This document shows positions 29,333-32,000 of a DNA stretch of 32,000 nt, one piece after another. A model generated the notes under the pieces. That model had not been told where the DNA came from. It was given only the letters and a program-made list of their open reading frames with translations, and did not search any database. The stretch covers positions 1 through 32,000 of the forward strand of contig CAZECW010000118.1 of the NCBI GenBank assembly GCA_964510585.1, read 5' to 3'. The stretch's first letter is position 1, and every line of letters begins with the position of its first letter. Source of the DNA: an uncultured archaeon. Its GTDB lineage: Archaea > Asgardarchaeota > Jordiarchaeia > Jordiarchaeales > Jordiarchaeaceae. A program made the translations under genes and the position numbers.

Positions 29333-30454
29333 TTGTCGTTGGCAGATGTTTTGGACCGTGTTATTGAGAATTTGGATAGATTTGTTAATGAGGCGGATCT
29401 TGGTGATCCTTTCTTTTCGGGTTCGGGATACGTGGCGTATCCCTTTAGTGTGGAGAATTTTAGGGAGATTAAAGGTACTGGGTCTGAACGCAAAATGGCT
29501 TTTGTTGATGGGGGGAATCAGGAGATTGTGGGTGCTCCAAATTTTTCAATTCAGATTAATCGGGTTTTTTTCAACATCTTCCAGAATAAGAAGCGGGTTT
29601 TTGAAAGTGTGATGCCGAGGAGAATAGAATTTTTTTCGGTCACCTTTTCAAATTTTAGGCAGAGCGAGATATATTATGACACCTCGATTTTCCCGGTAAG
29701 TGAAGAATTTGAAAACTATCTTCCAGACACTCGGGATCTCTCATTCAGCTCCATGGATCGCAGCGTGATGCAGGGGAATCTCAGAGCGGACATAGCAACA
29801 GTTTCCTCTATAGCGAGAAGATTCGCAGAGTGGGAATTCGCCAAACACGTAATAGAGAATGAGCTAGAAGAAAAAGATGTCATTGTTATGGATGGCACCC
29901 TCCAAACCGCGTTTACCAACGAGTCTAAATACTCAAAGGCTGTCTATGAACTGGCTAAAAAGAAGGGCGTTATTGTTACCGGTTTAACTAAGACCTGCGG
30001 CCTATTCACCACTACGGGCTTATCTCTTCTTGGGGCTGCAAGAAAATTCGCAAAAAACAACAATATAATATACCCCATGTGGTACTATTATCCTGTCGCA
30101 GAAGCCTTTAGCCCAGTTCACGAGGCAGTCATACTCTTAGTAAAACTCAATCCTATGACGGAGCGAATCTTCCGATTCGAAATATATAGGGAACAGGCAA
30201 AAAAATTAAGTATAGAAGAAATAGGCGAGATAGTGGAATCTCTTTCCAACAACTCTGCAGACATCACATTTCCAGGATATCCCTACGGACTTATAGACGC
30301 AGATTCAAACGCCCGGGTCCGCTCCGACGAAATGCAAAGATACAAGTATGCCCTGCTTTCAGCAATATCTAAAAAAGGTATATGGGGGAAATTTGCGAGA
30401 CACATCCAAGCCAAAGACGCGCACGATAAGCTAAACCAACTGACCCACTGGTAA
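29333..30454 (+). CDS. nurA: NurA-domain 5'-3' nuclease
   Basis: AFVDGGN, VIVMDGTL, GLTKT, GYPYGLIDAD; GGTGAG RBS before TTG. Confidence 0.88.
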   Translation: MSLADVLDRVIENLDRFVNEADLGDPFFSGSGYVAYPFSVENFREIKGTGSERKMAFVDGGNQEIVGAPNFSIQINRVFFNIFQNKKRVFESVMPRRIEFFSVTFSNFRQSEIYYDTSIFPVSEEFENYLPDTRDLSFSSMDRSVMQGNLRADIATVSSIARRFAEWEFAKHVIENELEEKDVIVMDGTLQTAFTNESKYSKAVYELAKKKGVIVTGLTKTCGLFTTTGLSLLGAARKFAKNNNIIYPMWYYYPVAEAFSPVHEAVILLVKLNPMTERIFRFEIYREQAKKLSIEEIGEIVESLSNNSADITFPGYPYGLIDADSNARVRSDEMQRYKYALLSAISKKGIWGKFARHIQAKDAHDKLNQLTHW

Positions 30455-30538
30455 AAATAGTCCTCCCCAAAACCTGCTCAATAAGAATTACACTCACTAA
30501 ATCTCTCCACTTCCTTCCAGTTCGAACCAGAAGCAACT

Positions 30539-30664
30539 TTATGTGGTAGTTGCGGCCTTCGCTTTCGCTGCTTTTGCTGTTTTTGCCTTTGCCTTTGCCT
30601 TTGCTGGTTTTGCTTCCTTTTCTTTTGGTTTTTCTTCCTTCTTCTTTCCAAATATCCAACTCAT
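30539..30664 (-). CDS. 41-aa Lys/Ala-rich basic microprotein MSWIFGKKKEEKPKEKEAKPAKAKAKAKTAKAAKAKAATTT (not in ORF track)
   Basis: ATG 30664 to TAA 30539 read by hand; GGAGCGAGGACTGA upstream; TATA-like TTATAA/TTTATA at 30740-30720; repeated GCA AAG/AAA codons. Confidence 0.65.
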   Translation of the reverse strand: MSWIFGKKKEEKPKEKEAKPAKAKAKAKTAKAAKAKAATTT

Positions 30665-30905
30665 AATCTAATCAGTCCTCGCTCCAATTTTTTGCAAGAG
30701 GGTTTAACCCTAATTGTAGATATAAAGTCTTATAATTTTTAGCCTAATTATCCTAATAAAAGTTTTCCAAAAATGTTCCTATTTTTTGGGCTGAGAATAT
30801 GGAATTGTTATAGATGAGGAGAGTGGAGCAGAGTAAACGGGTGCTTCGCCTTTTGAATTTTTGAGCTTCTCCCTCGAATTTTTTAGAGTTTTTCTCTTTA
30901 CGTGT

Positions 30906-31040
30906 TCATTTGCCTTTTGATTTTTTTCTTTTCGGGCTGGACTTTCTTTTCTTTTTAGTTTTCCGTCTCCTCTTTTTCTTTGATCCGAATAAGTCATCTA
31001 TTTCCTTCTCAGTTTTTGGACCGATTATTCTTTTGCCCAA
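30906..31040 (-). CDS. 44-aa Lys/Arg-rich basic microprotein MGKRIIGPKTEKEIDDLFGSKKKRRRKTKKKRKSSPKRKKSKGK (not in ORF track)
   Basis: TTG 31040 to TGA 30906 read by hand; GGGTGA RBS 8 nt upstream, like other genes here; 22 of 44 residues are K/R. Confidence 0.6.
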   Translation of the reverse strand: MGKRIIGPKTEKEIDDLFGSKKKRRRKTKKKRKSSPKRKKSKGK

Positions 31041-31458
31041 AAAATTTTCACCCTAACATGTAGTAAATTGCTTAATTTATTTCTTGGCTAATAAATATTT
31101 GTGGAAAATTTAAATTTCTTCTTTGGAGATGAGAATTGTTGATTGGTATGGGGTGCTTATTATTTATCCTAAAATTTTGGGGTCTGTTGTTTTAGTTGGG
31201 AGAATGTGTGGGGTTGATTAGGGCTCTTGGCTAATTGGTTTAGAAGGAAATCTTAAAAAAACCTACATGGTCTGCATTTCAAGACAAATGAAAACGTTTT
31301 TCATGTTAAAGTGTCTTAGATGACCTATTAGAGCAAGTAGTGGTAAATGTTTGTATCCTTATAAATGGAATCGCAGACAATTTTTAGAAAATATTAAAGA
31401 CGTTGAATGTTGAGTTTCAAATTGAAGTCTTTCTATTTTCATAGTTGGTGGGTAAAAT

Positions 31459-32000
31459 ATGGATGTCGTTGGGCAAATAGTTGCGGGAGAGGTTTCCTCC
31501 ATACTTATTCGCGAAAAGAGTGGTGAGAGAATCGAGCTGGGTGACCTCTTGGTTGTTGATGATAAGGATGGCTACCTTATTTTGAAGGTCTTCAATCTCT
31601 TGTATGGCAGTCAAGTTCCCCAAGCCGCCAGAGAGCTTCTTGCAGGTATGGAGTTGGAGGGGCATGGCGGCGCAGTTGATTTTCTAGAGCCTGAATTGAG
31701 GAGCTACGTTTTAGCTGAGGTTAAGGCCATCGCAAAGGTTACGGGAAAAAACGAGTTGTATGCTCCTAAAACTTTGCCGGGATTCTTTAAAAGTGTTAGA
31801 TTAATTTCGGAGAAAAACCTTAACTTTTTGACCAAGCCACCCTGTCCCGTGTATCTGGGTAAGGTTCGCAGTGGCTCCAAGGTTTTGAATGTTGATGTTT
31901 TTTTGAACGGCTTAGACATTTTTACCCATCACGTCTTGGTTGCAGCCACTACGGGTAGGGGCAAAAGTAACTTGGTGAAGGTTATGCTGTGGAGCATTGT
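31459..32000 (+). CDS. herA: HerA-family ATPase/translocase, 5' partial
   Basis: ATG 31459 after GGTGGG. MDVVGQIVAGE...IELGDLLVV (HAS-barrel-like start), YLGKVRSG, HHVLVAATTGRGKS (Walker A); open to the window end. Confidence 0.9.
   Translation, partial: MDVVGQIVAGEVSSILIREKSGERIELGDLLVVDDKDGYLILKVFNLLYGSQVPQAARELLAGMELEGHGGAVDFLEPELRSYVLAEVKAIAKVTGKNELYAPKTLPGFFKSVRLISEKNLNFLTKPPCPVYLGKVRSGSKVLNVDVFLNGLDIFTHHVLVAATTGRGKSNLVKVMLWSI

Follow-up and report, generated by a model that had tools for sequence, protein, structure and literature searches.

Results

The nurA-herA spacer

The window, by which we mean the whole 32,000-nucleotide stretch analyzed, ends in two repair genes, nurA and the beginning of herA, which are separated by a spacer of 1 kb (30455-31458). 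It lies on contig C118 of the 3.78-Mb MAG of an Asgard archaeon from hot springs, assigned to the genus Ca. Jordarchaeum (Jordarchaeia, or "Freyarchaeota"). The features of this region are the following.

29333-30454, plus strand: nurA, 373 aa, Pfam NurA, convergent with the microgenes
30539-30664, minus strand: ORF2, the type-B sister microgene, 41 aa, ATG start, beginning MSWIFGKKK
30906-31040, minus strand: ORF1, the type-A microprotein gene, 44 aa, TTG start
30910-31056, plus strand: Phe/Leu-rich frame of 48 aa antisense to ORF1, with wobble positions in common with it; judged not to be the gene
31048-31053, minus strand: Shine-Dalgarno-like GGGTGA, 7 nt 5′ of the ORF1 TTG
31071-31085, minus strand: A/T-rich TATA-like box (AAGAAATAAATTAAG), -45 to -31 from the ORF1 start codon
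31459-32000, plus strand: 5′ part of herA, which runs to 33009 on the contig, divergent from ORF1

Both microgenes are antisense within the spacer between nurA and herA-mre11-rad50, with ORF2 placed between ORF1 and nurA. Downstream of herA follow mre11 and rad50 (Pfam DUF87/HerA, Metallophos and SMC_N/AAA_23 on L059). Orthologues of nurA with 82-95% identity flank every member of the microgene family that has enough contig around it, and the spacer, 0.58-4 kb long in the relatives, holds one or more microgenes at every Jordarchaeal locus; the microgene nearest to nurA lies about 50-90 nt from the nurA stop codon. At the nearest outgroup loci (L096-L098; NurA 58-59% and HerA 59-65% identical) nurA, herA and mre11 abut, and by this comparison the split between nurA and herA is specific to Jordarchaeaceae.

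Other genes occupy the spacer in some relatives. A gene for a HEAT-repeat protein (PBS-lyase type, ~420-510 aa) lies immediately upstream of the microgene and on the same strand in G005 (L017:1818-3077) and at L092:2677-4206. It may be a co-transcribed partner of the microgene, and in this clade the microprotein reads MDRLSG. In G002 the spacer (L045:1209-3695) has acquired genes for a TPR protein and an ArsR-type HTH protein along with an ORF of 215 aa, and it contains, at 2765-2836, a 24-codon copy of the 5′ end of herA (79% identity), which suggests an insertion that generated a duplication. The occurrence of HEAT, TPR and HTH cargo in the same spacer suggests an insertion-tolerant site. 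Taken together with the abutting genes of the outgroup, it makes the microgene family look like a lineage-specific innovation in an insertion-tolerant break of a repair operon.

The genome encodes three paralogues of the NurA family (C137:1980-2831, C114:24598-25383 and C118:29492-30319). The one in the window (C118) fits the Pfam model least closely (38 bits), and outside the genus its closest relatives are labelled Thermoproteota, Nitrososphaeria and Thorarchaeota.

Anatomy of ORF1

A first-pass annotation had described ORF1 as an unannotated, protamine-like protein of 44 aa, half Lys and Arg, with a TTG start and an SPKR motif. The frame, its length, its start and the motif were all found as described, and the comparisons below support it as a conserved gene that annotation has passed over. 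Lys and Arg make up 22 of the 44 residues (50%), with 16 Lys (36%) and 6 Arg (14%). An N-terminal module, GKR[IVL][IV]Gx[KR]TE[KR]x[ILM]Dx[LV][FS]G, is followed by a 24-residue tail of Lys, Arg and Ser; this polycation spans residues 21-44 and includes SPKR at residues 35-38. The term "protamine-like" is apt for the overall composition, but not for a protein in which Lys outnumbers Arg and for which a Pfam search returned zero matches at an E-value of ≤0.1.

An Rfam search of both strands of 30400-31500 also gave zero matches, and the look-alikes of ORF1 in the ESM Atlas (best score 0.79) were uninformative. AlphaFold, run with an 8-row alignment, predicted one low-confidence helix (residues 8-33, pLDDT 66) and thus no fold to search. 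Within the 3.78-Mb genome, only two ORFs of 25-90 aa with at least 40% Lys and Arg are preceded by a Shine-Dalgarno-like motif; ORF1 is a clear outlier and the only sizeable one among such small basic ORFs to carry this signal.

The type-A family is confined to Jordarchaeaceae

Ten distinct versions of the type-A microprotein were collected, from all six Ca. Jordarchaeum genomes and from four hot-spring metagenome contigs. A six-frame search recovered in-frame homologues of ORF1 in five of the five other genomes of the genus (89, 86, 80, 63 and 53% identity). When 1.84e9 cluster representatives were searched exhaustively with HMMER, only two type-A proteins were added, of 38 and 42 aa, both of them TTG-started and with nurA present on two of their three short contigs; two further sequences came from contigs reached via close NurA homologues.

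Wider searches point to a narrow distribution. A profile of the N-terminal module gave significant matches only in the six genomes of the genus when run against 400 Asgard genomes, the remaining matches (E>0.02) being unrelated frames on inspection. No ORF1 relative was found among GTDB species representatives beyond the genus, in a scan of JGI metagenome contigs or among IMG/VR viral contigs, a word-indexed search of 5.8e9 proteins returned nothing, and a motif scan of this genome yielded no further paralogues. Likewise, none of 30 other Asgard NurA loci has a small basic ORF within ~1.5 kb of NurA. Judged by similarity in all the searches made, the ORF1 family is an orphan restricted to Jordarchaeaceae.

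The consensus of the ten proteins (38-45 aa; Lys plus Arg 0.47-0.57 of the whole protein) is M-G-K-R-[IVL]-[IV]-G-x-[KR]-T-E-[KR]-x-[ILM]-D-x-[LV]-[FS]-G-[SK]-K, with G2, K3, R4, G7, T10, E11, D15 and G19 invariant in the head. Conservation of the N-terminal 19 residues had been named in the first-pass annotation as a test of its reading, and 19-20 residues are indeed conserved across the ten sequences. The Phe of the ΦFG junction is replaced by Ser in three of them (G005, P0002 and L092). The tails, 18-25 aa of Lys, Arg, Ser and Thr with a net charge of about +20, allow no residue-by-residue alignment. A tail that keeps its composition but neither its sequence nor its length is characteristic of intrinsically disordered polycations.

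The same comparison bears on SPKR, which had been taken for the minor-groove-binding motif of H1 and sperm histones and for a possible site of phospho-regulation. It occurs only in this genome (G000), and the other nine members have SSKR, GSKR or no such site. With the motif confined to a single member, neither an H1-type S/TPKK motif nor phospho-regulation has comparative support.

Start signals and a putative promoter

All ten type-A genes keep the TTG start, always with a Shine-Dalgarno-like motif 6-7 nt away, and all ten have a stop codon right behind the tail. The motif is GGTGA-like in nine members and GAGGCGA in the tenth. GGGTGA precedes ORF1 as had been reported, but the gap to the TTG is 7 nt and not 8; it is 6 nt in the relatives.

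The earlier remark that this start type matches that of other genes holds genome-wide. In long ORFs, 6.0% of the first in-frame TTG codons have GGTGA 3-15 nt ahead of them, versus 0.8% of interior TTG codons, an enrichment of about 8-fold, and the corresponding values for ATG are 7.5% and 0.6%. TTG preceded by GGTGA is a genuine start signal in this genome. When all start candidates with GGTGA 4-10 nt upstream are counted over the whole genome (150 TTG, 167 ATG and 64 GTG), TTG is roughly as frequent as ATG, which bears on the re-annotation of small genes in this lineage.

The TATA-like box upstream of ORF1 is a putative promoter element. Nine of the ten type-A members have a similar box, of the ATATAAAT type, equally far from the start. 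The spacing between this box and the transcription start site is well established for archaeal promoters, and the position of the box implies a leader of about 12-16 nt for ORF1.

Coding signal and the choice of strand

Codon-level conservation, another check suggested at first pass, is evident in the ORF1 frame. Among four close genomes, pN/pS is 0.24 in this frame and reaches 0.60 and 1.93 in the remaining sense frames, and across the N-terminal module of eight sequences it is 0.30 versus 1.15-1.18. The 22 codons compared between G000 and P0001 contain ~10 synonymous and 5 nonsynonymous changes (Fisher p=3e-6).

The sequence is purine rich, and many frames are open from composition alone. 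A 72-aa frame (30779-30997) had been put forward as the possible target of purifying selection in place of ORF1. We rejected it: its pN/pS is 0.60-1.18 against 0.24-0.30 for ORF1, it is only 34 aa long in G004, and it spans indels of 4-5 nt, not multiples of 3, downstream of the ORF1 stop.

A more serious competitor lies on the opposite strand. The plus-strand frame at 30910-31056, which would encode a hydrophobic, Phe/Leu-rich peptide of which ORF1 would be the mirror image, has the same orientation as nurA and herA, is open in six of six genomes and mimics coding with a pN/pS of 0.36, close to the ORF1 value. Both its openness and its pN/pS are accounted for by the common wobble positions and by Lys and Arg codons, which mirror into Phe and Leu codons. 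Substitutions silent in just one of the two frames (42 in the sense frame, which is that of ORF1, and 58 in the antisense frame) show no preference for ORF1 and do not separate the strands. However, replacements are more conservative in the ORF1 frame (BLOSUM sum of +4.4 versus -5.3), and charged residues would fall inside the hydrophobic run of the plus-strand peptide. In addition, the plus strand of G005 lacks any ATG, GTG or TTG ahead of the shared region. The start of this frame is at a different position in every genome, no Shine-Dalgarno motif precedes it, and its C-terminal ends extend 6 to 30 residues past the shared part, so that neither start nor stop is conserved. A plus-strand gene would also leave the conserved minus-strand TTG, GGTGA and TATA-like box unexplained, and we regard it as quite improbable. 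Our strand call follows from the architecture of start, Shine-Dalgarno motif, TATA-like box and stop and from the missing antisense start in G005, not from the substitutions. ORF1 is very probably the gene at 30906-31040.

Two sequencing runs labelled metatranscriptomic probably consist of DNA; the contigs of both span nurA to herA, and these runs therefore have no bearing on ORF1 expression. On one public contig (L090:1789-2046), the gene caller annotated an overlapping 85-aa frame and not the conserved 45-aa TTG-started gene, which is likely a mis-annotation.

ORF2, a sister gene with a different tail

The type-B gene ORF2 has a tail rich in Lys, Ala and Glu. Its ATG start and a GAGGA motif are kept in seven of seven type-B versions, in which all differences in tail length are multiples of 3. 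What is left of a type-A head (…IGARTD…) precedes the ORF2 ATG. In the window a TAG closes this remnant; such a closing TAG is present in three genomes, and in G003 the remnant is open. In a genome-wide search with the type-A profile, the type-B locus of G003 was the best non-self match (E=0.0018), and BLASTP of the read-through type-B frame against the type-A protein of G005 gave an E-value of 4e-4. When the leaders of ORF1 and ORF2 were aligned locally at the DNA level, in G000 alone, the score was not significant (248 of 2000 shuffles reached it). On the strength of the profile and BLASTP matches and of the matching position and orientation, we regard ORF2 as a truncated paralogue of ORF1.

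Types A and B have only one element in common, the junction Φ-x-x-[LI]-F-G-[SK]-K-K. Five relatives carry both types; G002, G005 and L092 have only type A beside nurA, and L093-L095 have only type B, whose tails there measure 29-71 aa. At window positions 30456-30567, a related strain present in two hot-spring runs has 102 other letters in place of 110 nt. The exchange takes in the gap between nurA and ORF2 as well as the 3′ end of ORF2, so the gene tails vary even between strains.

Discussion

A probable disordered polycation in a repair-operon spacer

On balance, we lean toward the view that ORF1 encodes a genuine, translated microprotein of Jordarchaeaceae and that this protein is a disordered polycation most likely binding DNA or RNA. 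Translation, disorder, nucleic acid binding and any link to break repair are what we infer from the features described above, the binding being read from charge alone. A disordered polycation that binds nucleic acid is the most economical reading of a sequence with this composition. The tail would make electrostatic contact with a polyanion, most plausibly DNA or RNA, and the short head could provide a second, specific contact, above all through the hydrophobic-x-x-hydrophobic-F-G junction that also forms the N-terminus of ORF2. We hypothesize that the gene, alone or with ORF2, was born in the spacer that splits an ancestrally contiguous nurA-herA-mre11-rad50 operon, and that it is transcribed antisense to the repair operon from its own TATA-like box with a short, Shine-Dalgarno-led leader.

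What could the head contact? The Φ-x-x-[LI]-F-G junction resembles motifs in ESCRT-III, the ribosomal stalk protein aP1 and Nbs1, and matches none of these patterns in full. We treat these likenesses as leads only, and the replacement of Phe by Ser in three members weakens any reading of the junction as a docking motif.

The first of these leads points to a membrane-binding peptide, in which the hydrophobic-F-G element followed by Lys and Arg would act as an ESCRT-III-like insertion motif and the basic tail would lie on acidic lipids, so that the protein could tether DNA to the membrane. Hydrophobic insertion next to a polybasic stretch is a common design of membrane-binding proteins. Type-B members open directly with MSW[IL]FGKK, and one ESCRT-III (Snf7) protein of this genome begins MSIKDILFGKRPK. 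However, the likeness spans only 4-5 residues, the motif of type A is internal and flanked by Asp-Asp, and its Phe is among the residues that vary. The Pfam search found no Snf7 core, and tails of Lys/Ala or Lys/Arg/Ser are closer in appearance to those that bind nucleic acids. We consider a membrane peptide unlikely.

The location of the gene raises another possibility, namely, that ORF1 is an accessory of end resection by HerA-NurA and Mre11-Rad50, with the tail holding DNA and the head docking on HerA, NurA, Mre11 or Rad50. The gene lies between nurA and herA-mre11-rad50 in every genome or contig with enough sequence, in a Jordarchaeaceae-specific interruption of an otherwise tight operon. 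Moreover, EKEIDDLFGSKKKRRR of ORF1 resembles the ATM-binding segment of human Nbs1, 740-ADDLFRYNPY-749 (PMC8828054), and is then followed by basic residues; the likeness and the basic end are our own reading. Against this role, the antisense orientation and own promoter argue that the microgene is not co-transcribed with the repair genes, and synteny that is known within one family only says little about a functional link. ORF1 lacks the second aromatic residue of the Nbs1 FxF/Y, the 30 other Asgard NurA loci lack a nearby small basic ORF, and the HEAT, TPR and HTH cargo suggests a site that accepts insertions. A structure-based prediction of a complex between the NurA dimer and ORF1 (score 0.02) is evidence neither way. 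As a general proposal, a resection accessory is decidedly unlikely. Its fullest form is a long shot that we offer by analogy: a microprotein that arose de novo in Jordarchaeaceae and was recruited to HerA-NurA/Mre11-Rad50 resection, in which DNA ends would be held by the tail, and a repair protein or a HEAT-repeat partner would be the docking site for the DDLFG head. If true, it would represent an archaeal "third subunit," a functional analogue of the eukaryotic Nbs1 C-terminus with no counterpart described so far.

The likeness to aP1 would associate ORF1 with the ribosome or with translation factors, the ΦxxLFG element mimicking the C-terminal peptide of the aP1 stalk and the basic tail binding rRNA. 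The LxxLF peptide at the C-terminus of aP1 binds aEF1A, aEF2 and aIF5B. In this genome, aP1 ends in ...EEEEVAGLGALFG (GLGALFG), and IDDLFG of type A and MSW[IL]FG of type B fit the same Φ-x-x-[LI]-F-G pattern. Yet about 1% of 44-aa proteins would carry a motif of four positions by chance, and this one was noticed among several known motifs compared; it is not C-terminal in ORF1, its Phe is Ser in the same three members, and the genomic context offers no tie to translation genes. A stalk mimic is very improbable. Finally, an H1- or protamine-type condenser of chromatin, phospho-regulated at SPKR, would agree with the polycationic composition and the single SPKR of this genome, but the motif is present in none of the nine other members, the protein is Lys-rich and not Arg-rich, no winged-helix or other Pfam domain matches, and the family is confined to one archaeal family, which together make this reading extremely improbable.

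The reading of ORF1 as a nucleic acid-binding polycation makes it a concrete candidate for a clade-specific protein associated with the nucleoid or with repair. The position of the microgene marks a lineage-specific interruption of the otherwise conserved nurA-herA-mre11-rad50 operon. The pair of ORF1 and ORF2 would illustrate how a microgene is duplicated, truncated and given a different tail chemistry (Lys/Arg/Ser versus Lys/Ala) inside one genus. ORF1 also illustrates neatly that small TTG-started genes can escape standard annotation. It has at present no bearing on the evolution of histone H1 or protamines.

Comparison with known systems

Among short motifs, the likeness of ORF1 to ESCRT-III is the Φ-F-G-K/R-K/R junction, with which one Snf7 protein of this genome and the type-B proteins begin. 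Unlike the two Snf7 proteins encoded here (204-218 aa, contig C187), ORF1 lacks the Snf7 core (PF03357) and carries the motif internally, and a likeness limited to about five residues cannot show homology. Compared with the PIP box, Qxx[ILM]xx[FYW][FYW], the EKEIDDLF segment has Glu for Gln and Leu-Phe for the aromatic pair, and this Phe is Ser in three of the ten members. The Nbs1 C-terminus, defined by an acidic patch plus FxF/Y, has DDLF in common with ORF1, which continues with F-G-S where Nbs1 has its second aromatic residue. The aP1 stalk peptide, which comes behind an acidic linker, has Φ-x-x-L-F-G in common, but in ORF1 the motif is followed by 24 basic residues and is not at the extreme C-terminus.

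Among chromatin proteins, ORF1 differs from those with the archaeal histone fold and from Alba, Cren7, Sul7d and MC1, none of whose families it matched in Pfam at an E-value of ≤0.1. With protamines it shares its very small size, a content of about 50% basic residues and, probably, the neutralization of a polyanion. It differs from them in its proportions of Lys and Arg (36% and 14%), in lacking Cys or Arg clusters as well as any protamine match in Pfam, and in being archaeal and known from one family only.

Lysine-rich, disordered DNA-binding tails are known from the C-terminal domain of linker histone H1, mycobacterial HupB and chlamydial Hc1. Like these, the tail of ORF1 is highly basic, of low complexity and predicted to be unstructured, and it is conserved in composition and not in sequence; the Lys/Ala/Pro tail of ORF2 resembles the AK/PAKK repeats of H1-type tails. 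Unlike H1 and HupB, ORF1 has neither a winged-helix nor an HU fold detectable with Pfam and no conserved S/TPKK. Linker histone H1 in particular has repeated S/TPKK where ORF1 has one SPKR, in G000 only, and the 44-aa ORF1, with its single low-confidence AlphaFold helix, does not match Pfam Linker_histone. The H1, HupB and Hc1 tails differ further in that ORF1 is a free-standing protein of 38-45 aa across its family, with its own conserved 20-aa head and no sequence homology found to any of them.

Clade-restricted small basic proteins are known in archaea as extra ribosomal or nucleoid-associated proteins. ORF1 stands apart from these in its unusual placement in the nurA-herA spacer and in being known here from sequence alone; like them, it is a small basic protein of a single clade that annotation has overlooked. 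The ORF1 family itself is an orphan, and it belongs to a familiar general kind, the small clade-restricted polycation.
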